Positions 4,756 to 24,000 are shown, counted from the stretch's first letter. The stretch: DNA of 24,000 nucleotides from an uncultured Arenicella sp. (GCA_937974565.1 CALJWL010000058.1:12567-36566), one strand, 5' to 3'. The notes: generated from the sequence alone by a model not told the origin. Numbers and translations: made by a program.

Positions 4756-5538
4756 TTATTTCAATCGCACAAAGTCATCGAGTTTTTCGGCCACCAATTT
4801 CTGGCAATGCTTAGCACACTCTTTTCTTGTGGAAAATTCATCAATATAACAGACCGGATGAAAATGAATCTTAGCACCAACCTTCTTGCGTGGCATCAGA
4901 CCTAAAAAATGCGACAAAAAAGGCATGGTCGCATACCACGCGTAGTGATCACGCGTTCGTTGATTGTCAATTAACTCGCCGTTGTAGTGGGTATAAGCCA
5001 CCGTCACAGGCTGTATTGTAACGCGTTTGCCACTGGGTAGATTGGCGGCCTCTAAAAGAGACGATTTAAAAGACTCCACGTGTGTGCCATTGGTGCTTGT
5101 GCCTTCAGGAAACAGGGTTAAACTGTTGCCTTGCTCTAAGTGATCTTTCAATATTTGCAGCTGTTGTTTGGCCCTACCGGCTTTACGTTCAATAAATAAA
5201 GTGTTTTGAAACTTTGATAGCGCTCCTAATACAGGCCATGATGCCACTTCGGATTTGGCTATAAAGTAGGCCGGCAACTGCCCTAGTACAAATACGTCTA
5301 TATAAGAAACGTGGTTGCTTAAATACAGAGTCGGGCGCGCGCTACTCATCTGCCCGCTGGTGGTCACTCGTATTCCTAAAATACGACACACACCGGCATG
5401 AAACACGTGCGGCAGTTGTGCGTGTCTAGGAATACGCATAAGCCGACAAAGCATATACACCAATGGCATGGTTACAATCCACAATACCATCAATGTAATT
5501 CGTATTAGGCCGACTAAATAGTTTTTTTGATCAGGCAT
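4756..5538 (-). CDS. Lysophospholipid (1-acyl-glycerol-3-phosphate type, PlsC family) acyltransferase; OlsA-like O-acyltransferase partner of the upstream GNAT gene
   Basis: H(X)4D acyltransferase motif NHVSYID and the FPEGTSTNG block, with an N-terminal membrane helix. The start is placed at the ATG at 5538 (MPDQKNYLVGLIR...). The ORF track's longer form starts at a GTG at 5595 and adds 19 Cys/His-rich residues with no Shine-Dalgarno sequence. The start is uncertain. Confidence 0.8.
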   Translation of the reverse strand: MPDQKNYLVGLIRITLMVLWIVTMPLVYMLCRLMRIPRHAQLPHVFHAGVCRILGIRVTTSGQMSSARPTLYLSNHVSYIDVFVLGQLPAYFIAKSEVASWPVLGALSKFQNTLFIERKAGRAKQQLQILKDHLEQGNSLTLFPEGTSTNGTHVESFKSSLLEAANLPSGKRVTIQPVTVAYTHYNGELIDNQRTRDHYAWYATMPFLSHFLGLMPRKKVGAKIHFHPVCYIDEFSTRKECAKHCQKLVAEKLDDFVRLK

Positions 5539-5657
5539 GCTTATATGAGATGTTGTTGATCTTTCATGGACGGCGCACAAACATGGACGACACACAAACA
5601 GTACATCAGACGTTAACCGAATGCACTCGTCACGAATAGACGCTGGTTAAAACCATG

Positions 5658-6473
5658 TTAACCATCAATCGACTTATTAACCAGAGCGTGATTGGTATTG
5701 AACATTTCGTTAGCGTCTACGTATATTGCTACAAATGTGGTGTTAAACACGGGGTCAATAATTGCGTGTTCACTGATTCGAGCGCCAATTTTTAAATAAC
5801 CACGCAGCATGGTAGGCACCTTGCCACGCTCTTTTCCTTTACCCGGTTGTTGTCTAAAGTCGGCGATATCCACACTACTCACTTGCGCTTTAGGTATTGG
5901 CATCAGTGCGGGCGACGCCAAATGTTTATCGTAAAGGTACGAAAGAATTTCAGTGTGTTTACGATAGTCCGTGCCCTTGAAGCTGGCGCAGCCAAACAGC
6001 ACTTCGTAACCGTTATGTTCGATGAACTGCATTGTGAACTTCCAGATAAGCATCAAAATTGCCCCACCTCGCCCCTCGGGGGAGACGCAAGCGCGGCTGA
6101 GTTCTAGAATTTTGCCGTATGAGTTTCTTAAGCCATCTAAGTTAAACGCATGTTCGGTGTAAAACTCTTGGCTTTCTAACAGTGCCACACTACTGACCAA
6201 TCGCACCGTGCCAACAACACGGTTATCAGCTCTGGTGTCTACCACAACCACATGGTAGGCAATGTCATCCCACTCGTCCTCTTCTCGTTCAGTATTCAGC
6301 ATCTCTGGCGTAATCTTGCCACCGCTCTCGCGAAACAGTACTTCGTATCGAAGTTTCTGGGCCGAATGCACTTCATCATCACTTTGCGCCAAACGAACAT
6401 CATAACGACCTGCTGACATACTACCAGCGATCAGTTTAGTCATCTGTTTGAAAATTTTAGGTTTAATTGCCAT
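5658..6473 (-). CDS. GNAT-family N-acyltransferase of the OlsB / 'hemolysin-like' N-acyl amino acid synthase type
   Basis: 271 aa. YDVRLAQSDDEVHSAQKLRYEVLFRE ... EDEWDDIAYHVVVVD ... ELSRACVSPEGRGG matches the pattern I recall for OlsB-type lyso-ornithine-lipid synthases. It lies directly upstream of a PlsC-family gene, as in olsBA operons. Confidence 0.75.
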   Translation of the reverse strand: MAIKPKIFKQMTKLIAGSMSAGRYDVRLAQSDDEVHSAQKLRYEVLFRESGGKITPEMLNTEREEDEWDDIAYHVVVVDTRADNRVVGTVRLVSSVALLESQEFYTEHAFNLDGLRNSYGKILELSRACVSPEGRGGAILMLIWKFTMQFIEHNGYEVLFGCASFKGTDYRKHTEILSYLYDKHLASPALMPIPKAQVSSVDIADFRQQPGKGKERGKVPTMLRGYLKIGARISEHAIIDPVFNTTFVAIYVDANEMFNTNHALVNKSIDG

Positions 6474-6615: not shown

Positions 6616-7398
6616 TCAACGTACCGCCGCCGTGGCCTCCATTGAGATCACGGCTTTTTTCACGTCATTGGGAACCAGCGGCAAGGTAATGGCGTCTGAT
6701 AACGCCACTTCACAAGGAGGGCCGTCAGCATAACGAAATGATATTTCGCCATTGGCAACACGAACATGGCTTAAGCTAACGGTTTGAGCATCTTTACGAT
6801 GCATGCAAACAGAGTCTTTCGAACGGTTTGGAAGGTGGCTTGAGTGATAAGCAATATACTGCTCTGCCGATTCCGATTTATCAAGTTCCAAGTCCACAAA
6901 TAATTTTTTACGCAATGCCTTTACATTTTTTGCGTCCACCGATGAGGACGACTTGGGCACAGACGCATTGTGTTCAATTCTTGCTTTGTGCCCATCCCAA
7001 ACCAATAAAAGGTTATCTCCAGAAGGCTCTATAATGAACATGCGAAATGCACGGTAATCTTCTAAAACCATGGACTCAAACATGCTTTTAGCTTGAACAA
7101 GTTCAGTGATATTAGAGAATTGCCTGACTATCGCACCGCGGCTGGTCCAATTTTTATACGTTTCAATCTGCTCAAATTGATAGTGATTTAATAAACAAAC
7201 TGTCAAACCATGCTCATTAGTGGCTATCCACGTACCACCGGCATCTACGTCTGTGGGTGAAATATAACTAATATCACGATCGACGTTATTGTGGTGTTGG
7301 ATTGTTGGCAGTAAAGCACGACTGCGTGTTAAACGCTCATCTCGATTAAAAAATAAGTCGTAACCGTCGTCATGAACAAACCATGTCATTGTGCACAT
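6616..7398 (-). CDS. NRDE-family (TANGO2-like, predicted N-terminal-Cys hydrolase fold) protein
   Basis: 260 aa beginning MCT...FFNRDE, that is Cys2 plus the literal NRDE motif. It also has DAGGTWIATNEHGLTVCLLN. A strong AAGGAG Shine-Dalgarno sequence sits 5 nt upstream of the ATG at 7398. The gene overlaps the upstream gene by 13 nt. Confidence 0.8.
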   Translation of the reverse strand: MCTMTWFVHDDGYDLFFNRDERLTRSRALLPTIQHHNNVDRDISYISPTDVDAGGTWIATNEHGLTVCLLNHYQFEQIETYKNWTSRGAIVRQFSNITELVQAKSMFESMVLEDYRAFRMFIIEPSGDNLLLVWDGHKARIEHNASVPKSSSSVDAKNVKALRKKLFVDLELDKSESAEQYIAYHSSHLPNRSKDSVCMHRKDAQTVSLSHVRVANGEISFRYADGPPCEVALSDAITLPLVPNDVKKAVISMEATAAVR

Positions 7399-7973
7399 GC
7401 AGACTCCTTTATCGCTGCCAAAGCTTGGTCACCGCAACTTTCATTGTGTACACGTGTTGCGATTGCTACACCAAAATCTTCATCAGGCTGATTCCCAAAC
7501 GCGCGAGTCATGGCACCAATGATGGCGTAGTGGTGGACCGTGTGCGACTGCAAGAAAAGTAACTCTCGATTCAAATTAGTCTGAATCTGTCTGGATGCTT
7601 GCTCATCCTCTATGAAAAACTCTACACCCACGTTTGGATTAGCCAACACACTGAGTGACTCAATTAACTCATCAATAGTACGTAAGGCGTAACCTGAATC
7701 ACATTCAAGCAATTGGTCACGCTCACGTTTATCATAACAAAATGTCCCACCGACTATTTGGGTAGAAAAGCAACGATAATGCTCCAGCACATGACGAAAA
7801 TGAGCGCCAATAGTACTTTGGAAAGCGGGCTTGAAACCTTGAGTGTACTGATCTTTTTGCAGTAACCGGATAAGTTCAGCGCCCTCTTCAAGGCCTTGAA
7901 TATTGCTGTCTATTAGTTGTTGGTCGGGGCTCTTTTCCGATCGACGGTGTGATTTTTCTGAAACGATAGACAA
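7386..7973 (-). CDS. DinB-like (four-helix-bundle, His-rich putative metal-binding) protein of unknown function
   Basis: 195 aa. TTG start preceded by AAGAGAG. There is no internal ATG until residue ~150. His clusters GAHFRHVLEHY and SHTVHHYAIIGAM resemble the DinB-superfamily His triad. The function call is weak; the coding call is good. Confidence 0.55.
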   Translation of the reverse strand: MSIVSEKSHRRSEKSPDQQLIDSNIQGLEEGAELIRLLQKDQYTQGFKPAFQSTIGAHFRHVLEHYRCFSTQIVGGTFCYDKRERDQLLECDSGYALRTIDELIESLSVLANPNVGVEFFIEDEQASRQIQTNLNRELLFLQSHTVHHYAIIGAMTRAFGNQPDEDFGVAIATRVHNESCGDQALAAIKESACAQ

Positions 7974-13466: not shown

Positions 13467-16193
13467 ATGAATAGAATCATCATCTCGATGCTCCTGTCCG
13501 CAACCCTAATCGCGACCAACAGTCATGCTGCAACGGACGACATCGATATTCCCTTTACTAAGACCCAATTAGACAATGGGTTAACGCTGATTGTGCATGA
13601 AGATAAAAAAGCCCCTGTTGTTGCGGTTAATGTCTGGTATCACGTTGGCTCCAAAGATGAAAAACTGGGGCGCACGGGCTTTGCGCACCTTTTTGAACAC
13701 TTAATGTTTAACGGTTCTGAGAATTACAACGACGATTGGTTTAAGCCCTTTGATCGAGTTGGCGCCACAGGAATGAATGGCACCACCAACCAAGATCGCA
13801 CAAACTACTATCAAGTGGTTCCTAAAAACGCCTTGGAAATGGCGTTATGGATGGAATCTGATCGCATGGGCCATCTGCTTGGCGCAATTGACCAAGCCAA
13901 ACTGGATGAACAGCGTGGGGTGGTTAAAAACGAGAAGCGTCAAGGTGAAAATCAACCGTACGGGCGCGTCTTTAGCACCATACTCGAAAACGTTTACCCT
14001 AAAGGTCATCCGTATTCGTGGAGTGTGATAGGTTCAATGGAAGATTTGAATGCCGCCACGGTAGAAGACGTACACGAATGGTTTAAAACAAAATACGGTG
14101 CCGCTAATGCAACTCTGACTGTTGCGGGCGATGTCGACACCGCTGAAGTTCAAGGTCTGGTCAAAAAGTACTTTGGCCACATTGACGCTGGCCCTCCTCT
14201 TACCAAGCAGAGTAGCTGGATAGCAAAGCGGCAAGGCAAACACGAACAAATAATGTACGACCGAGTACCCAAAGCACGCCTGTATAAAATTTGGAATGTG
14301 CCTGAGTGGGGAACCGAAGCAGCCGACTTATTAGAGCTTGCTTCGGGCGTGTTGTCTAACGATAAAAAGTCTCGCTTATACAACCGTTTGGTCTACAAAG
14401 AGCAGAAAGCAAACGACATAGCCGCCTTCTCATTTAATTCTGAAATATCCGGCTTATTCGGTGTTATAGCGACCGCGGATAAATCAGAAGACTTGGACTA
14501 TATCAGTCAAGCCATCGACGAAGAACTCGCCAAATTCATGGCAAAAGGTCCGACGAAAGAAGAACTCAGTCGAGTAAAAACATCATCAAGAGCCGGCTTT
14601 ATTCGTGGCTTAGAACGCATTGGAGGCAAAGCTGACTTGTTGGCGCAAAACGAAGTGTTTGGCGGCCGCCCTGACTTTTACAAAACCTCTATAGAACGAT
14701 TCGAGAACGCCTCAGCCAAAGACGTGATGAACGCGGCAAAAACATGGCTAAGTGACGGCGAGTATAGTTTGCGTGTACTGCCCTTCGATCAACACTCAAC
14801 AACCGCCAGCACAGTGGATCGCAGCAAAGGCATTCCAGTGATTGGCGCCGCTCCTCAAGTTAGTTTTGATCGCCTTGAAAGGGCCACACTTAGCAATGGT
14901 TTGAAAGTGATATTGGCAAATCGCAGCGCCGTGCCCGTGGTTCGCATGCAGTTATTGGTGGATGCGGGCTACGCTGCCGATCAAGGCATTAAGCCCGGCA
15001 CAGCCAATTTAACAATGGCCATGCTAGACGAAGGCACCAAGTCAAGGGACGCACTCGACATCAGCAGCAAACTTGCCGCCATGGGCACCAGCCTCAGCAG
15101 CACTGCAAGTTTAGATTCCTCGTCTGTATCACTGAATACATTAAAAGAGAATCTTGATGAGTCTGTGAATATTTTTGCGGATGTTATCTTAAACCCAAGC
15201 TTCCCAAAAGACGAACTTGAACGACTACGCCAACAACAACTAGCCGCAATTGCACAGGAGAAATCCACCCCGTTTGGTGCCGCTCTGAGGGTGTTACCAA
15301 ACATTCTTTACGGTGAAGGCCACGCTTACGCGGCCCCATTCTCAGGTTCAGGCACGGAGGCCAGCGTTGCCTCTATGTCTACCGATGATTTAAGCACATA
15401 TCACAAGACTTGGTTTAAAGCGAATAACGCCACTCTGATTGTGACGGGCGACATCAACTTAACTGAATTGGTGCCGCTGGCTGAAAAAGCGCTGGGAGAA
15501 TTACCGACGGGCAACGTCCCGACCAAAAACATCAGCGACATAGCTCCAATGGCAGATTCTCGAATCTACCTCATTGATCGGCCAGGTTCAGAGCAATCGG
15601 TCATCATCGGCACTAAAATGCTGCCTAAATTTGGTTTTAAGGGTGAGCAAGCCATGCAACTAATGAACGAGGTCTTAGGCGCCAGCTTTAACTCTCGCAT
15701 TAACCTAAATTTACGAGAAGACAAAGGCTGGTCGTATGGCGCTCGCAGCATCGTGCGAGGAACCCAAGCTCAACGTCCGTTTATCACTTACGCCCCCGTG
15801 CAAACCGATAAAACCGCTGAGTCGTTATTAGAACTGTACGGTGAGGTTAAATCAATCCGAAGTGATCGACCGGCGTCTGCTGAAGAATTGGCCAGATCAT
15901 TAGATAAGAAGATTCTAACTCTGCCCGGTCGATGGGAGACTGCAGCGGCCGTTCAGGGTGATATCGTCACGCTGGCACGCTACGGCCTTGATGAAAGTTA
16001 CTGGGACAACTACGTGACCGAATTAAGGCAAATAGATCTGGCGCAAGTAAATGATGCCGCCAAAGAACATATGCAACCCGATAACATGCTTTGGGTCATT
16101 GTTGGTGATCGTTCTCGTGTCGAACAAGCCATACGCGACACTAAAATCGGCGAAGTCATATTGGTCGATGCTGAAGGCAAAGCCGTTCAATAG
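13467..16193 (+). CDS. Secreted M16 (pitrilysin/insulinase) family zinc peptidase, a fused two-half form
   Basis: 908 aa. Signal peptide MNRIIISMLLSATLIATNSHA. Inverted zinc motif HLFEHLMFNG near residue 74. The second half (from about residue 470) is M16-like but lacks HxxEH. Confidence 0.9.
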   Translation: MNRIIISMLLSATLIATNSHAATDDIDIPFTKTQLDNGLTLIVHEDKKAPVVAVNVWYHVGSKDEKLGRTGFAHLFEHLMFNGSENYNDDWFKPFDRVGATGMNGTTNQDRTNYYQVVPKNALEMALWMESDRMGHLLGAIDQAKLDEQRGVVKNEKRQGENQPYGRVFSTILENVYPKGHPYSWSVIGSMEDLNAATVEDVHEWFKTKYGAANATLTVAGDVDTAEVQGLVKKYFGHIDAGPPLTKQSSWIAKRQGKHEQIMYDRVPKARLYKIWNVPEWGTEAADLLELASGVLSNDKKSRLYNRLVYKEQKANDIAAFSFNSEISGLFGVIATADKSEDLDYISQAIDEELAKFMAKGPTKEELSRVKTSSRAGFIRGLERIGGKADLLAQNEVFGGRPDFYKTSIERFENASAKDVMNAAKTWLSDGEYSLRVLPFDQHSTTASTVDRSKGIPVIGAAPQVSFDRLERATLSNGLKVILANRSAVPVVRMQLLVDAGYAADQGIKPGTANLTMAMLDEGTKSRDALDISSKLAAMGTSLSSTASLDSSSVSLNTLKENLDESVNIFADVILNPSFPKDELERLRQQQLAAIAQEKSTPFGAALRVLPNILYGEGHAYAAPFSGSGTEASVASMSTDDLSTYHKTWFKANNATLIVTGDINLTELVPLAEKALGELPTGNVPTKNISDIAPMADSRIYLIDRPGSEQSVIIGTKMLPKFGFKGEQAMQLMNEVLGASFNSRINLNLREDKGWSYGARSIVRGTQAQRPFITYAPVQTDKTAESLLELYGEVKSIRSDRPASAEELARSLDKKILTLPGRWETAAAVQGDIVTLARYGLDESYWDNYVTELRQIDLAQVNDAAKEHMQPDNMLWVIVGDRSRVEQAIRDTKIGEVILVDAEGKAVQ

Positions 16194-16234
16194 TTAGTTG
16201 ACCCACCCGAGTTAGCTAACCCAAAGCGCTAATG

Positions 16235-16267
16235 AAAGGCCATGAGCGCAAGCTTATGGCCTTTTTT
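16235..16267 (+). terminator. Rho-independent terminator after the M16 peptidase gene, possibly bidirectional
   Basis: AAAGGCCATGAGC-gca-AGCTTATGGCCTTT, with one G-U pair in the stem, followed by TTTTTTATT. The reverse strand shows the same hairpin followed by TTTCATT. Confidence 0.8.
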
Positions 16268-16337
16268 ATTGCTCACGCTTTTATTGCTCAAGGATTGCCA
16301 AATTCAAATGTCTGATTAGCATGGAAAGAAAAAAATT

Positions 16338-16368
16338 AAGATAACTAAGATAACTAACGATAACTAAG
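16338..16368. repeat. Short tandem repeat, three copies of about 9 bp (AAGATAACT AAGATAACT AACGATAACT)
   Basis: Read directly in the intergenic DNA between the peptidase terminator and the tRNA array. Confidence 0.6.
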
Positions 16369-16425
16369 GCTCAATACGCGATTTAACGAATGCCGTTTAA
16401 CATTAGACGCGTGGATCCAAAAAGT

Positions 16426-16502
16426 TGGCGGAGCGGACGGGACTCGAACCCGCGACCCCCGGCGTGACAGGCCGGTATTCTAACCAACTGAACTACCGCT
16501 CC
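16426..16502 (-). tRNA. tRNA-Asp (anticodon GUC), CCA encoded
   Basis: The reverse complement GGAGCGGTAGTTCAGTTGGTTAGAATACCGGCCTGTCACGCCGGGGGTCGCGGGTTCGAGTCCCGTCCGCTCCGCCA folds as a cloverleaf. It is nearly identical to E. coli tRNA-Asp. Confidence 0.97.
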
Positions 16503-16570
16503 AGCTTGCTAACATCCTTAAAGTTTATTACTTTTCCCTTACAAAATTAATCTACGGACTGTGCTAGAAA

Positions 16571-16598
16571 GACAAAACCCTCAGCTATTAACTGAGGG
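16571..16598 (-). terminator. Terminator-like hairpin between the two tRNA-Asp genes
   Basis: On the minus strand: CCCTCAG-ttaatag-CTGAGGG followed by TTTTGTCTTTC. This is a 7-bp stem plus a T-rich tail. Confidence 0.45.
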
Positions 16599-16622
16599 CT
16601 TGCTATTCGGGAAACTTGAAAA

Positions 16623-16699
16623 TGGCGGAGCGGACGGGACTCGAACCCGCGACCCCCGGCGTGACAGGCCGGTATTCTAACCAACTGAACTACCGCTCC
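16623..16699 (-). tRNA. tRNA-Asp (anticodon GUC), second copy
   Basis: 77 nt, 100% identical to 16426-16502. Confidence 0.97.
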
Positions 16700-16814
16700 G
16701 CATTTCCAAATTTAAACTCTTTTACAGTGCTATAAGATCTCACTCATACCAAATTAGAAGTGAATCTTAAGCAGTTAAGTAAAATTTCAACAATTTAACT
16801 TAAACTCAAAAGAA

Positions 16815-16890
16815 TGGTGGGCGTTAGTGGACTTGAACCACTGACCCTCGCCTTGTAAGGGCGATGCTCTACCAACTGAGCTAAACGCCC
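16815..16890 (-). tRNA. tRNA-Val (anticodon UAC), CCA encoded
   Basis: The reverse complement GGGCGTTTAGCTCAGTTGGTAGAGCATCGCCCTTACAAGGCGAGGGTCAGTGGTTCAAGTCCACTAACGCCCACCA gives a complete cloverleaf with anticodon loop CUUACAA. Confidence 0.97.
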
Positions 16891-16904
16891 GAATCTTGCC
16901 AAAT

Positions 16905-16965
16905 CGGAGGCGAATAATAGCAGAAGTATCGAAGCTTGCAAGCAAGTTTTTAAATTTTTTCAAAC
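16905..16965 (-). promoter_or_regulatory. Sigma70-type promoter of the tRNA Val-Asp-Asp array, with an A/T-rich UP-like element and a GC-rich discriminator
   Basis: On the minus strand: GAAAAAATTTAAAAAC (UP-like), TTGCAA (16941-16936), a 16-bp spacer, TATTAT (16919-16914), then the discriminator TCGCCTCCG. The predicted start is about 15-20 nt before tRNA-Val. Confidence 0.55.
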
Positions 16966-17263
16966 TTATCTAGGCACCCTGTAAGTAAGCCTCTAAGTCT
17001 TGCTGCTGCTGGCCTTTCAACTGCTCTACCCTCCAACGCGGCGCTAGTTTAATGCATATAAAATTCTATGCAATCACTTTTTCTAATTTCTCAAAAATTC
17101 GCTAAACAACTCCTGTAAAATGGGTTTAAGAAGGCATACTCAACGCTAGTCGCAATCACAAAAAAGTCTGAGAGATTAGTTAGGCTCGTGCCTCTAATAC
17201 TGAGTGGCTCTTTTTAAGATGAAACATCTCAATCCTGCGTCAGTTTAATTTACAATCGGTTCT

Positions 17264-18220
17264 ATGGAACTCTCCACCCCTTTTATCAAACTGCCATTTC
17301 TTTTTGATGCTGATCGGCTCAGTCAAGAAGTGCAACAATTTGAGGCCAACACATGGATGGCTCACCCCAATCGAATCAATGGCAATAGCGCCATTGCGCT
17401 GATATCGCACCGCGGTGACGATAATAATGACTTTTCTGGACGCATGCGCCCAACTCAGCATCTTGTCCAATGTGAATATATTCAGCAAGTAATGGCCAGT
17501 TTTGGAGAAGTGTTAGCTCGCTCTCGCTTGATGCGCTTGGCGGCCCAATCAGAAGTTACGGCGCATGTGGACTTCAATTATCATTGGTATAACCGTGTGC
17601 GCATCCACATTCCCGTCATCACTAATCCTGATGTTGTGTTTTACTGCGGCAACGAACAACGGCATATGCAAGCTGGCGAATGTTGGATTTTCGATTCGTG
17701 GCGCCGACATAAAGTGACGAATACCAGCGACTTAGATCGAGTGCATTTGGTGATCGACACAGCCGGTTCATCTCGATTCTGGAACATGGTCGACCTGGCC
17801 GCCAGCGGCAACGTCAAAACCAAATCAATCCCATACAAAGTTGGTGTGAAAAAGAATGTTAAAACTGAGAGATTCAATGTTGCACCGGTAATGGCGCCTG
17901 GTGAATTAGAAGCCATTGCAAAAGAATTGATGGCGGACATATTGGCAAACCCTCAGAACGAGAAAAACATTGCTAACGAATACCACGTATTACTCAGAAA
18001 CTTAGCGAAGGATTGGCGAGAAGTTTGGCATCAATTTGGTTGCACCCGCGCGGGCCATAAACACTATCAAGCCTTGTTAAATCGCACGGTAAAAAGCTTG
18101 CATGCGAACCCACGTGTGCTTGTCACCCACAGCAACAACGTGGGCATCAACCCGATTATCATGCAACGCATACTGCGTGCTGCGCTTAACTCAGATCAAC
18201 TAGGCTTGTTCTTTGAATAA
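17264..18220 (+). CDS. Aspartyl/asparaginyl beta-hydroxylase-like (AspH/LpxO/OlsC-family cupin, Fe(II)/2-oxoglutarate oxygenase) domain protein, standalone paralog
   Basis: 318 aa. Has AHVD ... NRVRIHIPV ... CWIFDSWRRHKV ... RVHLVIDT, an H-x-D...H triad in a cupin context. It is colinear over its full length with the N-terminal ~330 aa of the 19280-21211 product. The aligned N-termini support both start codons. No signal peptide. Confidence 0.75.
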   Translation: MELSTPFIKLPFLFDADRLSQEVQQFEANTWMAHPNRINGNSAIALISHRGDDNNDFSGRMRPTQHLVQCEYIQQVMASFGEVLARSRLMRLAAQSEVTAHVDFNYHWYNRVRIHIPVITNPDVVFYCGNEQRHMQAGECWIFDSWRRHKVTNTSDLDRVHLVIDTAGSSRFWNMVDLAASGNVKTKSIPYKVGVKKNVKTERFNVAPVMAPGELEAIAKELMADILANPQNEKNIANEYHVLLRNLAKDWREVWHQFGCTRAGHKHYQALLNRTVKSLHANPRVLVTHSNNVGINPIIMQRILRAALNSDQLGLFFE

Positions 18221-18271
18221 CGCACCACTCAACCTAATGAACCCTTATTAGACCAGCCCTTTTTGGAAAGC

Positions 18272-19132
18272 ATGAAGATCAATAAAGTGTCGGCCTTCTC
18301 TGACAACCAACGCGGGGGAAACCCTGCCGGTGTGACGGTGCTTGAGGGCATGCCAAGTGAGGCAGACATGCAAGCCATAGCGGCCGACGTTGGTTTTTCT
18401 GAAACCGTGTTCTCTGCCCCAGATGCAACCGCAACTCATGGCACAACGCCCGATTCAACGGTCTGGCGAGTACGATACTTTTCCCCTCAACACGAGGTGG
18501 CGTTTTGTGGCCACGCCACCATCGCATTAGGAGCTGTTTTAGCAAAACACCACGGTCAACGCACGTTCAATCTGCGGCTCAATCACACTGAGATTAGTGT
18601 TGATGGCTTTGAAAGAAATGGCCAATACTCGGCCGCTTTTCAATCACCAAAAACGTACTCATTGGCGGTAGAACCCAATCACATATCCGATGCTCTCAAG
18701 CTGTTTGGGTTGCAAGACTCGCAGTTGGATAAGCGCATACCCCCAGCGATTATAAATGCCGGTGTAAACCATTTACTGCTTAACCTCATGGATCACGAGA
18801 CATTAAGGCAAATGAGGTATGACCTAGAGGCAGGCAAAGCCTTTATGCAACATTTAGGCGTTACCACCGTAATGCTGGTATTTAAGCAAAACGATCACCA
18901 GTACCATGCACGCAACGCCTTCGCACCCGGTGGGGTATACGAAGACCCCGCCACCGGTGCGGCGGCCGCCGCGTTTGCAGGGTATTTACGAGACTCTCTT
19001 GGACAAGGTGCGGGGCAACTAGAAATAACACAAGGTGAGGACATGGGCTTTAAGTCCATCATTAATGCTTCATTTACATCGCAAAAAGCCAGCTCTGTTC
19101 GTATTGCTGGTGCAACGCACGTATTGCCTTGA
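18272..19132 (+). CDS. PhzF-family (diaminopimelate-epimerase fold) isomerase-like protein
   Basis: MKINKVSAFSDNQRGGNPAGV ... FCGHATIALG ... FAPGGVYEDPATGAAAAAFAGYL is typical of PhzF/YddE proteins. The ORF track starts at a TTG at 18263; I prefer the ATG at 18272. Confidence 0.85.
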   Translation: MKINKVSAFSDNQRGGNPAGVTVLEGMPSEADMQAIAADVGFSETVFSAPDATATHGTTPDSTVWRVRYFSPQHEVAFCGHATIALGAVLAKHHGQRTFNLRLNHTEISVDGFERNGQYSAAFQSPKTYSLAVEPNHISDALKLFGLQDSQLDKRIPPAIINAGVNHLLLNLMDHETLRQMRYDLEAGKAFMQHLGVTTVMLVFKQNDHQYHARNAFAPGGVYEDPATGAAAAAFAGYLRDSLGQGAGQLEITQGEDMGFKSIINASFTSQKASSVRIAGATHVLP

Positions 19133-19279
19133 TGCATCGCAACGATGGCTTCTTTTTTGCTCTGAACTTACAACCAACACCAGGTTAAAAAGTTACGCAC
19201 ATTTCCTGTGGATAACTTTGTGAGTAATTCCTAAGACCACTGACGCTGAGTAGAAAAACGCAGATTGATTAATATTTAA

Positions 19280-21211
19280 TCAACGCTTTTTATTAGAGAA
19301 GCGATCATGAAAATCGTTAATACGTTGCTGAACACTCACGTACTCCGTTTGAACGCCCAGCAGTGTGTCTTGATGTCGTAACCATTTATCAGTGCGGGGT
19401 TGGGTCAATGCATATTTGGAGTTTGGAAAGCCGGTTCGAGCGTACGATTGCATTTTCGGTCCAAATGGTGCTTTTATAAAGCCGCACACCGCCTTCAGTG
19501 TCTCGAATGGGGTTTCAAGCAACTCTTCATAACTCAAACAGTAAATGTCTTGCTGCGCTGTATTGAACAACTCTGACTGAAAATCATCCATAATTTGTCG
19601 ATTGGTTTGCGCCCATTGAAAAGCCGCAACTTCGGCAAGGCTGCGCCCTATTTTTTCACGCCAACCCTCAACTAACAATAATGACCATGATACACCCGTC
19701 CACTTTGGTAACTGTTGATAAGTAACAAACTTACCCGACTCCCATGCGTCTATCATGCTGCCAATATTAGGCTCAGCTTGGCGATGCAAATAAATAAATT
19801 TAGCATCCGGGAACATTCGTTTAAAGAAAGGAAGACGTAAAGCATTCTTAGGTGTTTTCTCTAAAAAACGAACGGCAGAAGGCTGAAAATCTGGCGGCAT
19901 ATCAGCGTAAGGCGCGCAGCGCGAGTTTTGCAGTCGATGCATAAAAGCGTCCATGATTTGTTCGCCAACCTCACGGTTAAAATCACTCTCATCCAAACGA
20001 TTGGAATGAAAGCCTCGATTGAGCGGGTTTAGTGTGGCGATCGACTCGATTTCCTGATGTGCTTCATCGCCCATGCTCCAAAGGTCTTTATTAAACTTAA
20101 GCGCTTCAAACAACATGGTGCTGCCCGAGCGTGGAGCGCCCACAATAAACACCGGCGCCTCAAATTTGGGTGTCTTACCCTTATAACTTGAGTTCTCCAT
20201 CACGCTTATCTTCAAAACTTTTGATTGCGCGGCTTCTTTGTCTACAGCCAAGTCTAACCAATTGTTGATCACGTGATGGGCGGGCACACCATTACTCTTT
20301 AAGAACACGCTGCGTAATGGGTTTTTAAGTTCACTTTTGACGGTCTCGATTAAGGTTAAATACCGTTGAATACCTTCTGAAGTATCCAAATATTGCGCCC
20401 AATAGCCTCTCCAGTCACGGCATAGGGCTACTAGCTCAGCTTGAATTCTTGCAAACACACTTGCGTCGCTCATCGATTCGATTTCAATCAGAAAATCACG
20501 CACCAGTGCTTCAATTTCATCAGGCGATCGTACGGAAACCACATTGTATCTTTCAAACGGAAGTTCCAACGTGGGCGCTCGTTCGTCAAACTCAAGGTGT
20601 TTTACGCTTTTAGCCCAATCCGCCAGTGAGCTATTGTCGTTGCCATTGGGGTCCCAGCCATTGTCAGCCAAACACCAAAAATTCGCCGTACCAACTGTGT
20701 CAATCACCAAATGAATGCGATGGATGTCCGATTGATTAATAACCGCGTGTTCACGCCAATTGTCAAATATCCACGCTTCGCCGGCACGTTTATGCACGTT
20801 CACTTGAGGCTTATCAGAGGTGGACATCGAAGAAAAAACTATTCGCGGATCAGTCACAATGGGAATGTGTATTCTGACTCGGTTACGCCACGTGTAATCG
20901 GTATCGCTGTGCGCCGGAACGCCTTTACCTGGGGCCAAACGCATAAAGCGTGACCGCCCAATGATCGTCTCAAATGACGCCATAATTTGTTGAATATAGG
21001 GGCATTTCCCCAGAGCTGCAGTGGCTTTCATCTCGCCGATGTAAGCATAACTACGGTCACCGTTTTTTGACACCAAATTAAGGGCTGTATTTCCGTCGTA
21101 TCTTTGCGGGTGATAATCCCACTCGTATTCCGAAAATTGCTTGGCTTCGTGAGCCAACCTCTGAACATCAAAACTGAGAGGTAAGCGAATAAATTCAGAC
21201 TTAAGGCGCAT
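19280..21211 (-). CDS. Fusion protein: an N-terminal AspH-like oxygenase module (aa 1 to ~330) and a C-terminal PAPS-type sulfotransferase domain (aa ~345-643)
   Basis: 643 aa. The N-terminus has AHSD ... NRVRIHIPIV ... AWIFDNWREHAV ... RIHLVIDT. The C-terminus has the 5'-PSB P-loop VFIVGAPRSGSTMLFEAL (about nt 20160-20110) and an R...S block IYLHRQAEPNIGSMIDAW. No signal peptide. Confidence 0.8.
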   Translation of the reverse strand: MRLKSEFIRLPLSFDVQRLAHEAKQFSEYEWDYHPQRYDGNTALNLVSKNGDRSYAYIGEMKATAALGKCPYIQQIMASFETIIGRSRFMRLAPGKGVPAHSDTDYTWRNRVRIHIPIVTDPRIVFSSMSTSDKPQVNVHKRAGEAWIFDNWREHAVINQSDIHRIHLVIDTVGTANFWCLADNGWDPNGNDNSSLADWAKSVKHLEFDERAPTLELPFERYNVVSVRSPDEIEALVRDFLIEIESMSDASVFARIQAELVALCRDWRGYWAQYLDTSEGIQRYLTLIETVKSELKNPLRSVFLKSNGVPAHHVINNWLDLAVDKEAAQSKVLKISVMENSSYKGKTPKFEAPVFIVGAPRSGSTMLFEALKFNKDLWSMGDEAHQEIESIATLNPLNRGFHSNRLDESDFNREVGEQIMDAFMHRLQNSRCAPYADMPPDFQPSAVRFLEKTPKNALRLPFFKRMFPDAKFIYLHRQAEPNIGSMIDAWESGKFVTYQQLPKWTGVSWSLLLVEGWREKIGRSLAEVAAFQWAQTNRQIMDDFQSELFNTAQQDIYCLSYEELLETPFETLKAVCGFIKAPFGPKMQSYARTGFPNSKYALTQPRTDKWLRHQDTLLGVQTEYVSVQQRINDFHDRFSNKKR

Positions 21212-21231
21212 AAAACCGGCTCAAGCGAATA

Positions 21232-23244
21232 CTAAGCGGCTTCAAAGGGGTAACGAGCAAGCACATCATCACCAAGCGCGTCGATTAACGGTTTTAGGTG
21301 GCGTTCAAAGTTTCGCCATTGCTCTAGCCCAGTTTTATAAATCGGCTGACGCACCTGCTCTGAACTCGGGGTTCGCACGTTACGTTCAGTTTTATAAAAC
21401 TCCAAGCAAGATTCTTCAAACGGCAAGCCACAAAAGTCTAAAATTTTTCTTACCTGAAATTCTAAGTCGTTAACAACGTCCTCATGCTGCACCCTCAAAA
21501 CAAAACCTGGCAACACGGCATCCCAGTGATCCATTAACTCAACGTAGTTTTTGTAATAGTCTCCAATCTCTTGCAAGCCATAAGTGAACTCTTGTCCTTC
21601 AGCAAACAGTTGTTTGAAACCACTGAAACAACACGCCATTGGGTGGCGCCTAGCGTCAATCACTTTGGCGTTTGGCAGTATTAATTTAATCAAGCCGACA
21701 TGCATAAAGTTATTCGGCATTTTATCGATAAAGAACGCCGCACCTTGCCTGAAAACATGCGTTTCTTCTATGTATTGCTCACCAAATTTGGCGAAGTAAT
21801 CCGTTTCAAGAGTGGCGAGTATTTTCGGGTATTGCGGCTCAGCGCCCTCTTCCAGTGAGTCTCTGCCGCGCAGGCGGCGACTCAAACTAAGAATATTAGG
21901 CAACTCTAGCGTACCGTCAACTTGAGAATGAGACGCCAGAATTTGCTCCAGCAGCGTTGAACCTGCGCGTGGCAACCCTAAAATGAAGATCGGGTCTGGC
22001 GCTGAATGGCCGACATCACTTAAGCGTTCAAACAGCGCTTTAGTGCAATTATTTTTCTGATACTGAACTCGCTTTGTCACTTCAGGGGATTGGTAGTTTA
22101 AGATTTCTTTATTTAAGCGATTGCCTTCACCATAAGCTCGGAATGCAAGATCGTATTCTTTTCGATCTTCGTAGGCTTTTCCAAGAGCAAAATTAAAATG
22201 CACTTTATCAATGGCGGAGGTTTCTTCACGTTCTTTATAGTCAAGCATGTGCGTGACTTCATCGTCTGAAAATTCATACGCCTTTGTGTTCGCCAAACTC
22301 CAAAACGCGTCACCGTAATCTGGCTGTAGCTCATACAAACGTTGATAACATTCAATTGCGGCCGGGAGATTACCAAGGGTTTTTTCAGCGTGGCCGCACA
22401 GAAGATACGCATGATGAAGGTTATACCCTTGAGCAATCAGCGTTCGGTACAAATCAACCGCCGATTGAGTTTCACCGACGCCCGCTAACGCAGAGGCGTA
22501 CAGACCTTGAAATTGCAACACGTCTGGTTGTTCGTTTATTAATGCCAGTGCAATCTCATGCGCAGCACCAAACTTCTGCCGCTTAATCAATACATTGGCG
22601 TAGTCAAAACGGGCCCCCACATGATCTGGCGCAAAGGTTACCGCGCTTTCTAAGATAAACTCCGCATCATCTAAAATTTTCGCACGTTGAGCTATTTCAG
22701 CCAGCAAACGCATGCCTTCTATGTCTTGCTTGTTTTGCTGCATGTACTGTCGACATGCTTGATCAGCTGAATCAATGTCATCTCGATTCAAGAAACTTTT
22801 CACGGCTTGCAAGGCCGGGTGCAATGCCTCTAACTGTTTAATTTCAAGGCGTGCTTGTAATGCACCCTCAGGGTTCGCGTTTTCCTCATGCAACGCTTTT
22901 AACGCACGCCAACTGCCTATTAACGCCGAGTCAACCGACACCGCCCTCTCGAATGCCTCAATCGCAGCACGAGCATTGCCTTGTTGCCTGAAGATATGGC
23001 CAACTTCTTGGTGCGCACGTGCAAAACTTGGGTCTTGAAGAACAATACTTTGCAACTGGCTGACTGCTTTTTGAGGCTGCCCTAAACGCCTTAAACACAC
23101 GGCTCTTACGTACGCCGCTTCAACGTTTTCTACAACAAGGGCATTCAATGAGTCTAAGGTTGCCAGGGCCGCCTTAAACTGGCCTGCCTTGGCGAGTTCT
23201 GTGGCTTTATTAATGACGGTGGCTTGGTCGTGCATTGCGGTCAT
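21232..23244 (-). CDS. Tetratricopeptide-repeat (about 400 aa) plus sulfotransferase (about 250 aa) fusion protein
   Basis: 670 aa. The N-terminal part has repeated TPR-like A-x-x-x-[FY]-x-x-A helix pairs. The C-terminus has IFILGLPRAGSTLLEQILASH (5'-PSB, about nt 21990-21950) and VIDARRHPMACCFSGFKQ (3'-PB-like). It ends 20 nt before the next gene's ATG, so the two are probably co-transcribed. Confidence 0.85.
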   Translation of the reverse strand: MTAMHDQATVINKATELAKAGQFKAALATLDSLNALVVENVEAAYVRAVCLRRLGQPQKAVSQLQSIVLQDPSFARAHQEVGHIFRQQGNARAAIEAFERAVSVDSALIGSWRALKALHEENANPEGALQARLEIKQLEALHPALQAVKSFLNRDDIDSADQACRQYMQQNKQDIEGMRLLAEIAQRAKILDDAEFILESAVTFAPDHVGARFDYANVLIKRQKFGAAHEIALALINEQPDVLQFQGLYASALAGVGETQSAVDLYRTLIAQGYNLHHAYLLCGHAEKTLGNLPAAIECYQRLYELQPDYGDAFWSLANTKAYEFSDDEVTHMLDYKEREETSAIDKVHFNFALGKAYEDRKEYDLAFRAYGEGNRLNKEILNYQSPEVTKRVQYQKNNCTKALFERLSDVGHSAPDPIFILGLPRAGSTLLEQILASHSQVDGTLELPNILSLSRRLRGRDSLEEGAEPQYPKILATLETDYFAKFGEQYIEETHVFRQGAAFFIDKMPNNFMHVGLIKLILPNAKVIDARRHPMACCFSGFKQLFAEGQEFTYGLQEIGDYYKNYVELMDHWDAVLPGFVLRVQHEDVVNDLEFQVRKILDFCGLPFEESCLEFYKTERNVRTPSSEQVRQPIYKTGLEQWRNFERHLKPLIDALGDDVLARYPFEAA

Positions 23245-23418
23245 AATTCGATCAAAGGTGATGGTTGCGGTTATGAAATGCTTACGAATATAGAGGTCAG
23301 ACTGTTATCAAGAGTAATTTAAACCAAAGACGGTCAAGAACGCCCAAAAGGTTAAAAAACGCCCATAAGCGCCTCACTCACCCCAGCCTGATAAAACAAA
23401 TTTTAACAAGATAATTCA

Positions 23419-23447
23419 TAAAAAAGGCGAGCCTCACGGCTCGCCTT
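23419..23447 (-). terminator. Rho-independent terminator of the TonB-dependent receptor gene
   Basis: On the minus strand: AAGGCGAGCC-gtga-GGCTCGCCTT followed by TTTTTTATG. This is a 10-bp GC-rich stem. Confidence 0.85.
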
Positions 23448-23543
23448 ATAGCGCTTACGGATCAAATATAACAAACGTTAACCACTTTGAACCGTTTACA
23501 GCAATACGAATGTACGCTAAGTAACGCTTTCCACTGTCAACGC

Positions 23544-24000
23544 TTAGTTATAATCCCAACGAAAGCGTAAGCCAACGGTTCGTGGGCGCGTGACAGAAAC
23601 ACGTGGCACATAGTCAAATGTGCTGATATTGACAATGCCGTCCTCGTCAAACAAGTTGTTGATAAATAACTCAACCCCCCAGTTGTCTTTGTCAATACCC
23701 GCTGACACGTTGACCAAGGAGTATGATTCCTGAATATAACGGCCGTTTTGGAAAAAGGAGCCGTCGGGCGTTAAGCCAAATGAACCCGGAGTCGCTACCC
23801 TTGAAGCACCAAACGTGCCACCTTCGTTCTGGATAGTTAAGCCCGTACCTCGGCCGTACAAACGACGAGTGGTGTCTTCAACAAAATTGGCGTTACCAAC
23901 GATGCCTGAGAAGCTATCACCGGTGTAAACCACACCGGCTTGGACAAACGCATCAGCACCAAAACTGTCGAAGCGAAAATCGTATCTACCACGCAGATTG
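23544..24000 (-). CDS. TonB-dependent outer-membrane receptor, C-terminal part; the 5' end lies outside the window
   Basis: The frame stays open upstream of the ORF track's GTG at 23933 through to 24000 (...NLRGRYDFRFDSFGADAFVQAGVVYTGD...). It shows the alternating beta-strand pattern and a C-terminal barrel-closing segment, VSVTRPRTVGLRFRWDYN. Confidence 0.8.
   Translation of the reverse strand, partial: NLRGRYDFRFDSFGADAFVQAGVVYTGDSFSGIVGNANFVEDTTRRLYGRGTGLTIQNEGGTFGASRVATPGSFGLTPDGSFFQNGRYIQESYSLVNVSAGIDKDNWGVELFINNLFDEDGIVNISTFDYVPRVSVTRPRTVGLRFRWDYN

Follow-up and report, generated by a model that had tools for sequence, protein, structure and literature searches.

Iyer, Abhiman, de Souza, and Aravind (NAR 2010; PMC2938197) described a sulfotransferase type that is fused or linked to bacterial 2-oxoglutarate (2OG) oxygenases, for which they predicted hydroxylation followed by sulfation, and they also reported neighborhoods of beta-hydroxylase and sulfotransferase genes and frequent TonB-receptor neighborhoods of other 2OG oxygenases. 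That work is computational only, names no substrate, and stresses collagen-like proteins, tail-collar proteins, and peptide metabolites, which are absent from the locus considered here; nor do its available sections specifically describe a family in which PF05118 is followed by a helical region and PF13469. A member of such a family is the subject of this study. It is encoded in a 24,000-nucleotide stretch of DNA from an uncultured Arenicella sp. (GCA_937974565.1 CALJWL010000058.1:12567-36566), which is called the window throughout, and it joins an Fe(II)/2OG oxygenase and a sulfotransferase dependent on 3'-phosphoadenosine 5'-phosphosulfate (PAPS) in one chain, referred to below as the fusion.

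By sequence and fold, the N-terminal module best matches L-proline cis-4-hydroxylase (4P7W/4P7X) and proline 3-hydroxylase (1E5R). These proline hydroxylases share with it the iron-binding triad, an arginine ten residues past the distal histidine, and a carboxylate-binding arginine pair, but they have no fused sulfotransferase, the identity is only about 16%, and their glutamate E112 is not kept in the module. The whole module gives moderate TM-scores of 0.43 to 0.52 against the proline 3- and 4-hydroxylases with a root mean square deviation (rmsd) of 13 to 14 Å; only the core superposes well. The best-superposing cupin core is that of the Cpz10-type beta-hydroxylase of caprazamycin biosynthesis (7V4F series; PMC9814697), with a target-normalized TM-score of 0.75 and an rmsd of 4 Å; the assignment of 7V4F to Cpz10 was made through the title of that paper. 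The Cpz10-type enzyme acts on a small-molecule intermediate but is a single domain of 167 to 182 residues with about 20% identity, without the helical region or the sulfotransferase. Human AspH belongs to the same Pfam family, PF05118, and its core superposes over about 169 columns (rmsd 3.5 Å). However, AspH has an iron site of two histidines without an acidic ligand, its own tetratricopeptide repeat (TPR) domain, a membrane anchor in the endoplasmic reticulum, and epidermal growth factor-like domains as substrates, and none of these features applies to the fusion.

For the C-terminal domain, the sulfotransferase domains of CurM and OLS (4GBM, 4GOX) and the tyrosine sulfotransferases TPST1/2 are the relevant described enzymes, since their PAPS loops and lysine motif align with the fusion. 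Identity is 15 to 18%, and neither kind is fused to an oxygenase. The CurM domain works inside a polyketide synthase beside a thioesterase and has a carrier-bound acyl acceptor, whereas the TPSTs reside in the Golgi and have a tyrosine acceptor. In the cyanobacterial saxitoxin pathway, C11 hydroxylation is followed by O-sulfation. Steps of this type share the logic of an oxygenase followed by a PAPS-dependent sulfotransferase, but they are carried out by separate proteins of other enzyme families encoded in a defined cluster.

The idea that linked enzymes of these two kinds hydroxylate and then sulfate was thus predicted in 2010 and is not new. A literature search found no biochemical characterization of any member of the present family, of the TPR-bearing sulfotransferases beside receptor genes described below, or of the DUF4915 domain found in some relatives, in agreement with the statement in an earlier note on this DNA that no bacterial enzyme with such coupled chemistry has been characterized. 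Considering the 2010 prediction together with the absence of experimental work on members, we regard the fusion as a genuine uncharacterized variant of a known enzymatic logic and not as a new category.

Domain organization of the fusion

The earlier note had claimed a single polypeptide in which an oxygenase is fused to a sulfotransferase, and this is confirmed by an intact gene and two Pfam domains above threshold. Window positions 19280 to 21211 on the minus strand form an unbroken open reading frame (ORF) from ATG to stop, whose translation has 643 residues. Asp_Arg_Hydrox (PF05118) matches residues 59 to 172 (E 5e-14, 52.8 bits, gathering cutoff 22.6), and Sulfotransfer_3 (PF13469) matches residues 353 to 583 (E 3e-21, 77 bits, gathering cutoff 27). 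From the N terminus, with all coordinates on the minus strand, the protein consists of a cupin (double-stranded beta-helix) Fe(II)/2OG oxygenase domain (residues 1 to 185, 20657 to 21211; Pfam, model, and Foldseek), a helical region (residues 186 to 335, 20207 to 20656; paralog alignment and model), a linker of low model confidence whose length varies in the alignment (residues 336 to 352, 20156 to 20206), and a PAPS-dependent sulfotransferase domain of the TPST or CurM type (residues 353 to 643, 19283 to 20155; Pfam and matches in structure and sequence). The sequence near which the earlier note had placed the start of the sulfotransferase, VFIVGAPRSGST, is at residues 354 to 365.

The AlphaFold2 model of the fusion, built with 116 homologs as input, has a mean pLDDT (predicted local distance difference test) of 93.6 and a pTM (predicted TM-score) of 0.79. 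It predicts beta strands up to about residue 173, helices from 176 to 336, and an alpha/beta domain after a single flexible linker, in which pLDDT falls below 50 at residues 336 to 339. As to a common cleft for the two active sites, which the earlier note had raised, this pTM is no more than suggestive. The double-stranded beta-helix fold is found in AlphaFold2 models with pLDDT of 93.6 and 89.6, and Foldseek matches it with probability 1.00 to several 2OG oxygenases. Among the sequence and fold matches, there was no solved structure that contains both domains.

A standalone hydroxylase paralog of 318 residues, also made up of cupin and helical region, is encoded on the plus strand at 17264 to 18220, convergent with the fusion gene. 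It is 39% identical to residues 1 to 315 of the fusion, so the helical region is common to both, as the earlier note had stated. No signal peptide is visible in the fusion sequence, no membrane-spanning segment was seen on reading it, and it has no Pfam match to TPR; such repeats sit on a neighboring sulfotransferase instead. It is well supported that the fusion acts in the cytoplasm, as judged from its sequence, that both of its active sites work, and that the two activities belong to one process.

Oxygenase active site

Residue conservation was taken from alignments of 24 and 116 homologs. In the latter, H101, D103, H155, R86, and R88 never vary, and at least 90% of the sequences have R165. 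The H-x-D...H triad that the earlier note had pointed out is therefore intact: H101-S-D103 (20903 to 20911) would supply the first two iron ligands and H155 (20747 to 20749) the third, while R165 (20717 to 20719), ten residues past H155, is predicted to bind the C5 carboxylate of 2OG (all on the minus strand). In proline 3-hydroxylase, iron is held by H107, D109, and H158, and 2OG is bound by R168; the substrate carboxylate is held by R95, R97, and R122 and the amino group by E112 (PMC9968057). The residues of the fusion that align with residues of this enzyme are H101, D103, H155, and R165, as well as R86-S-R88 (20948 to 20956, minus strand), which falls on R95/R97. Because R86 and R88 match these carboxylate-binding arginines, we infer that the substrate bears a carboxylate near the attacked carbon. 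The counterpart of E112 is Y106, in an alignment of about 16% identity that makes this a weak test; a free alpha-amino acid is therefore a plausible, not an established, substrate.

The relatives of the module point in the same direction. Its profile matches L-proline cis-4-hydroxylase with an E value of 9e-10, proline 3-hydroxylase with 3e-6, and the Cpz10-type beta-hydroxylase 7V4F with 1e-5, and the Foldseek ranking agrees with this order. These closest solved relatives use free L-proline or pipecolate, or a nucleoside intermediate, so the oxygenase module resembles small-molecule hydroxylases. The profile reaches human AspH (5APA) only at an E value of 0.73. The term AspH-like, used in the earlier note, thus holds for the Pfam label PF05118 but is too specific as a description of the enzyme.

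Sulfotransferase active site

In the same 116 homologs, P360, R361, G363, E389, T453, N456, R459, R477, and S598 are invariant, and E383, E451, K452, and S485 occur in at least 90%. The PRSGST loop named in the earlier note is present at residues 360 to 365 (20117 to 20134) and is predicted from alignment and conservation to bind the 5'-phosphosulfate of PAPS; when aligned to TPST and the CurM sulfotransferase, R361 falls in the 5'-phosphosulfate loop. The motif R477...S485 (19757 to 19783), conserved together with this loop, would bind the 3'-phosphate of PAPS. E451-KTPKN456 (19844 to 19861; all three motifs on the minus strand) aligns with the NKDP motif of TPST and the DKSP motif of the CurM sulfotransferase, and its K452 matches the conserved lysine of both (K158 and K133, respectively), which has a catalytic role in TPST2 and the CurM domain. 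E383 aligns with a TPST glutamate and adjoins the column of the CurM glutamate. The closest solved sulfotransferases, by sequence and Foldseek, are the CurM domain (5e-19, the best by sequence), TPST1/2, and Stf9.

Authenticity and distribution of the fusion

A fusion of this kind could arise as an assembly or frameshift artefact that unites two separate genes. An independent Logan assembly, made from a public sequencing run, agrees with window positions 16855 to 24000 at 100% identity in a contig that reaches 7.2 kb further, and more than 180 homologs from many phyla have the same collinear architecture, align through the linker, and keep both catalytic sets. Because the second assembly is identical and the architecture is kept across these homologs, the artefact named by the earlier note as a danger to its reading is refuted; nothing was found in its favor, and we give it virtually no chance. 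Loss of catalytic residues, another danger it named, was not found either, since both sets are invariant or nearly so in the 116 homologs.

The earlier note had proposed a survey of the architecture and its phyletic spread, and this survey shows that the fusion is widespread. PF13469 is present in all 120 of the best listed database homologs (37 to 74% identity, 76 to 100% coverage) and PF05118 as well in 118 of them. A genome scan with one genome per species returned at least 521 stretches that code for a relative, and the best 80 loci were examined. The fusion is encoded in all 80, where 78 match from residue 1 and the remaining two are interrupted by contig ends. These best 80 loci span at least six phyla and include Gammaproteobacteria (Arenicella, Woeseiaceae, Halieaceae, Steroidobacter, Nevskia, Solimonas), Alphaproteobacteria, Cyanobacteria, Acidobacteriota, Myxococcota, Verrucomicrobiota, and Bacteroidota; the nearest relative among reference genomes is encoded in an Arenicella metagenome-assembled genome (62% identity). 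A profile search of 1.84 billion representative proteins gave 945 clusters (at 50% identity) at E ≤ 1e-30, single-domain relatives included.

Across 115 homologs, the cupin is the most conserved part, with a median identity to the window protein of 56%, followed by the sulfotransferase with 44%, and the helical region is the most variable, with 24%. The identities of cupin and sulfotransferase to the window protein are correlated (r = 0.69), as expected if the two domains are inherited together.

Natural variants of the family

We aligned 264 family proteins to the family model and classed them by site integrity. Both sites are intact in 183 proteins. A degenerate iron triad is combined with intact sulfotransferase motifs in 29, only the sulfotransferase is present in 26 (some with the helical region, without cupin), and only the N-terminal module in 13; the sulfotransferase is flagged as degenerate in 12 and both sites in 1. 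Clear replacements of K452 and E383 are seen in five of these 12, and the rest include truncated or poorly aligned sequences. A few otherwise intact fusions (P0010, P0011, P0044, P0189, and P0201) have Q or Y in place of K452 and a changed E383 but keep the PAPS-binding motifs; they may be catalytically altered sulfotransferases.

The proteins with a degenerate triad include a sister clade (P0199, P0200, P0202, P0207, P0210, P0212, and P0214, and loci L084 and L085), for which direct alignment confirmed that the oxygenase site is lost; the cupin fold and every sulfotransferase motif are kept. This clade indicates that the sulfotransferase can function without an oxygenase in cis and that the N-terminal module has a second role, probably substrate binding. 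In L084 and L085, the surrounding genes encode a small sulfotransferase and a carrier protein, together with a HemN-like radical S-adenosylmethionine (SAM) enzyme and a chorismate-pyruvate-lyase-like protein. The L084 cluster also encodes an AMP-ligase, a reductase like those of nonribosomal peptide synthetases (NRPS), TauE, and an intact PF05118 protein of 194 residues, whose gene overlaps the stop codon of the gene for the dead cupin and sulfotransferase, which amounts to a split arrangement.

About 18 of the top 150 representative clusters, or about one in eight, are longer, with 925 to 1089 residues. Of the five long forms scanned, four end in a DUF4915/TIGR03032 domain and the fifth has a second sulfotransferase. 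DUF4915 (PF16261, TIGR03032) is fused in several lineages, namely in P0126, P0128, P0149, and P0188 and in loci L060, L071, L075, and L077, and a separate DUF4915 gene adjoins the fusion gene in three cyanobacterial loci (L025, L032, and L065). For this domain, the literature, solved relatives by sequence, and weak Pfam hints were all without result.

Gene neighborhoods

In the window, the gene upstream of the fusion (21232 to 23244, minus strand) encodes a protein of 670 residues with TPR repeats and a second PF13469 sulfotransferase. Its stop lies 20 nucleotides ahead of the fusion start on the same strand, so the two genes are probably transcribed together as one unit. Between their sulfotransferase domains, identity is only 27% over 125 residues, which places these in different subfamilies. 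Further upstream lies the 3' end of a gene for a TonB-dependent receptor (23544 to 24000, minus strand), which translation, library matches, and the extended contig show to continue past the window and to encode a product of 913 residues. Between these genes, about 100 nucleotides past the receptor stop codon, is a strong terminator-like hairpin with a T run behind its 10 pairs, of which 7 are G-C (23424 to 23447, minus strand), and for this reason the two enzyme genes are probably a unit of their own. Just upstream of the receptor gene, in the 7.2 kb extension past the window end, is a gene for a TauE/SafE-family anion permease (L001 3435 to 4244). The extended contig also holds genes for a thiolase-like/enoyl-CoA hydratase fusion and an AraC regulator beyond the window end. 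On the other side, the gene for the standalone paralog is followed after 42 nucleotides by a PhzF-family isomerase gene (18263 to 19132, plus strand). There was no convincing small ORF for a precursor peptide in the window, no thioesterase in the Pfam annotation of window and extension, and no carrier-protein or DUF4915 gene at the window locus.

For comparison, genes within 10 kb of the fusion gene were counted in the best 80 loci. Gene calling was by simple longest ORF, which is noisy in GC-rich genomes, so the counts are approximate; neighbors were labeled by domain, since single-linkage clustering had merged hydroxylases, sulfotransferases, and TPR proteins through the fusions. Another PF13469 sulfotransferase is present in 33 of the 80 loci, a TonB-dependent receptor in 26, and a PF05118 paralog in 23; a TPR-AspH protein occurs in 19 loci, and 16 have a small PF03567 sulfotransferase. 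Less frequent are other small 2OG oxygenases (10 loci), a Sel1 plus prolyl-hydroxylase-like protein (9), a large beta-helix outer-membrane protein (9), and a BCCT transporter (7). Hydroxylase and sulfotransferase activities are thus linked genomically. Genes for an AMP-ligase, a carrier protein, a radical SAM enzyme, a chorismate-lyase-like protein, or an NRPS-like protein were found in none of the 80 loci within 10 kb, and a conserved small ORF (20 to 110 residues) within 2 kb of the fusion gene was found in none either.

In the closest relatives, the gene order is receptor, TPR-sulfotransferase, fusion, and small sulfotransferase, and this run converges on a same-strand series of genes for a dehydrogenase, a gamma-butyrobetaine-hydroxylase-like dioxygenase, a BCCT transporter, and, last, the paralog. 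Of the 33 TonB-dependent receptor genes in these loci, 13 are directly followed by a same-strand gene for a PF13469 sulfotransferase of 600 to 670 residues, TPR-bearing where checked. The beta-helix protein has 800 to 1500 residues, is exported, and has a barrel-like N terminus and 25 to 35 right-handed beta-helix repeats. Its sequence contains many D and N residues and, in the majority of members, few K residues; several members have most of their tyrosines beside acidic residues. Its gene adjoins the fusion gene in cyanobacteria and gammaproteobacteria (L016, at 13485 to 17456, and L019, L017, L018/L089, L025, L032, L035, L037, and L038), and in L016 and L019 it is located between modifying-enzyme genes on one strand.

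Discussion

Our leading interpretation, which we hold tentatively and at somewhat less than an even chance, is that the fusion is a bifunctional cytoplasmic enzyme that tailors one substrate, hydroxylating and then sulfating a small carboxylate-bearing molecule. The N-terminal Fe(II)/2OG oxygenase would hydroxylate an unactivated C-H near the carboxylate of the substrate, for which a free amino acid or some comparable small acid is the likeliest candidate. The C-terminal domain would then add sulfate from PAPS, most probably onto the new hydroxyl, to give an O-sulfated hydroxy acid. In this process, the fusion might work with the probably co-transcribed TPR-sulfotransferase, and in relatives, the further hydroxylases and sulfotransferases could contribute more steps to one route. 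Export of the product, and renewed uptake of it or of a related compound, may be the tasks of the TauE-family permease and the TonB-dependent receptor encoded just upstream. That both steps act on the same atom, what the substrate is, and what the transporters do are the parts of this scheme that we infer.

A small carboxylate-bearing substrate would fit the kinship of the module with small-molecule hydroxylases, the invariant arginine pair, the TauE and BCCT neighbors, the small-molecule genes that accompany the paralog gene in the closest relatives, and the lack of a precursor peptide gene. The coupling of the two activities is favored by the split arrangement in L084 and by the recurring co-occurrence of hydroxylases and sulfotransferases. 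The reading in the earlier note, in which the hydroxyl installed by the oxygenase accepts the sulfate, is partly supported. Several observations weigh against this interpretation. No result ties the installed hydroxyl to the sulfate. The 29 relatives that lack the H-x-D...H triad retain all sulfotransferase motifs, and the amino-group ligand of proline 3-hydroxylase corresponds to a tyrosine here. A recognizable partner gene is absent in 33 of the 80 loci, and some homologs are isolated among housekeeping genes. Finally, TPR repeats on partner enzymes, exported partners, receptors (26 of 80 loci), and beta-helix proteins (9 of 80 loci, in two phyla) hint at a protein substrate.

This last hint leads to the alternative that survives best, although we consider it unlikely, namely that the fusion modifies proteins. 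Asp or Asn residues would be hydroxylated in the cytoplasm before export, and that hydroxyl or nearby tyrosines would then be sulfated. As targets, proteins of the outer membrane or cell surface come into question, for example the product of the adjacent TonB-dependent receptor gene or the beta-helix repeat adhesins, and the TPR partners would hold the unfolded substrate. Several facts are consistent with such a role: the partner sulfotransferase here carries fused TPR repeats, as does a PF05118 hydroxylase in 19 of the 80 loci, same-strand sulfotransferase genes directly follow 13 of the 33 receptor genes, and the gene for the exported D/N-rich beta-helix protein adjoins that of the fusion in two phyla and in two loci lies between the enzyme genes. 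In addition, TPST, which sulfates tyrosine, is among the closest solved sulfotransferases, and Iyer et al. (PMC2938197) proposed protein substrates for linked beta-hydroxylases and sulfotransferases. However, the N-terminal module is far nearer to hydroxylases of free amino acids than to human AspH (9e-10 versus 0.73), the receptor is absent in 54 of the 80 loci and the beta-helix protein in 71, and in the window the terminator-like hairpin parts the receptor gene from the enzyme genes. Furthermore, no such modification of a bacterial outer-membrane protein was found in the literature search. A more specific form of this proposal, in which a cytoplasmic system places O-sulfated beta-hydroxy-Asp/Asn, and possibly sulfotyrosine, on surface-bound proteins including TonB-dependent receptors and beta-helix adhesins, seems quite doubtful to us. 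If true, it would be an unprecedented bacterial modification and a counterpart to the hydroxylation of Asp and sulfation of Tyr that take place in the secretory pathway of eukaryotes.

It is rather unlikely, in our estimation, that the two domains serve the same pathway at different positions. In that case, the sulfotransferase would act on a pre-existing hydroxyl (of a phenol, a sugar, or Ser/Thr/Tyr), and the N-terminal module would mainly recognize the substrate and add a separate hydroxyl. The 29 relatives with a degenerate triad and intact sulfotransferase motifs suggest that the module can be retained for a non-catalytic role, proteins that consist of the helical region and the sulfotransferase without a cupin exist, and the neighbors in L084 and L085 (chorismate-pyruvate-lyase-like, carrier-protein, and radical SAM genes, with an AMP-ligase gene in one of them) suggest a tethered p-hydroxybenzoate-like phenol as the acceptor. 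On the other hand, the triad and the 2OG-binding arginine are strictly conserved in the clade of the window protein, the carrier-protein, AMP-ligase, radical SAM, and lyase genes are missing within 10 kb in all 80 loci, and in L084 the intact hydroxylase gene comes at once after the degenerate one, as if it replaced the lost activity.

The CurM sulfotransferase domain sulfates a beta-hydroxyl and thereby enables its elimination. It could be supposed that the fusion likewise installs sulfate on the new hydroxyl as a leaving group. Loss of this sulfate would, as in curacin biosynthesis, leave a desaturated, ring-closed, or substituted product overall, and a third activity, perhaps DUF4915, would complete the reaction. 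The CurM domain is indeed the closest solved sulfotransferase by sequence, and DUF4915/TIGR03032 is C-terminal in about one in eight representative clusters and is encoded beside the fusion in cyanobacteria. Nevertheless, the similarity to the CurM domain is at family level only, the window locus has neither a thioesterase nor a carrier-protein or DUF4915 gene, and two or three sulfotransferases in a locus would be better explained by several stable sulfate esters. We think that this alternative has a slim chance.

Very improbable is a membrane-lipid substrate, in which the cupin would act like OlsC or LpxO and hydroxylate an acyl chain, either in an ornithine-type aminolipid or in lipid A, and the product would be converted to a sulfated lipid; the sole NCBIfam matches of the fusion are OlsC (6.6e-4) and LpxO (6e-3) and OlsB- and OlsA-like genes lie in the window, but these matches are far under the family cutoffs (18.9 bits versus 450), the Ols genes are about 13 kb off beyond housekeeping genes and show no recurring linkage in the 80 loci, and the fusion sequence has no visible membrane-spanning segment. 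The Ols genes themselves (4756 to 6473, minus strand) encode an OlsA-like lyso-ornithine lipid O-acyltransferase and an OlsB-like ornithine N-acyltransferase, both below the equivalog cutoffs, and from these matches the source organism probably makes an ornithine-type aminolipid.

Two further candidates were considered and rejected. One paper places a sulfotransferase and an Asp beta-hydroxylase within a lasso-peptide cluster. Tailoring of a lasso peptide or another peptide that is made on the ribosome and modified post-translationally was rejected here on the grounds that the locus has no lasso genes and the 80 loci have no conserved small ORF. A carrier-protein-bound substrate was rejected for the clade of the window protein, where carrier-related genes occur in none of the 80 loci; it is attractive only for the sister clade with the dead oxygenase.

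Hydroxylases and sulfotransferases are ordinary tailoring enzymes, and their sequential use as separate enzymes is already known; it is their joining in one chain that is unusual. Since at least 2010, it has been asked what purpose the neighborhoods rich in receptors, TPR-sulfotransferases, and hydroxylases serve. Identification of the substrate would assign a function to hundreds of genes that are annotated merely as "sulfotransferase", would probably uncover, in bacteria of sea and soil, a sulfated metabolite or modification that is new, and could explain the receptor-linked enzyme clusters. For such work, the natural variants of the family, with a dead oxygenase, an altered sulfotransferase, a split arrangement, or a fused DUF4915, are ready-made controls, and cultured carriers of the family include Solimonas aquatica, Nevskia soli, and Steroidobacter flavus.

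Other features of the window

Two tRNA-Asp(GTC) genes about 197 nucleotides apart and a tRNA-Val(TAC) gene (16426 to 16890, minus strand) adjoin the island of hydroxylase and sulfotransferase genes. A TANGO2-family gene (6616 to 7973, minus strand) has a 13-nucleotide overlap with the end of a gene for a 195-residue protein without a Pfam match. The first part of the window (1 to 3806, minus strand) encodes the N-terminal 1268 residues of a very large repeat protein, with seven DUF7507 stretches and one DUF11, whose gene runs past the window start.

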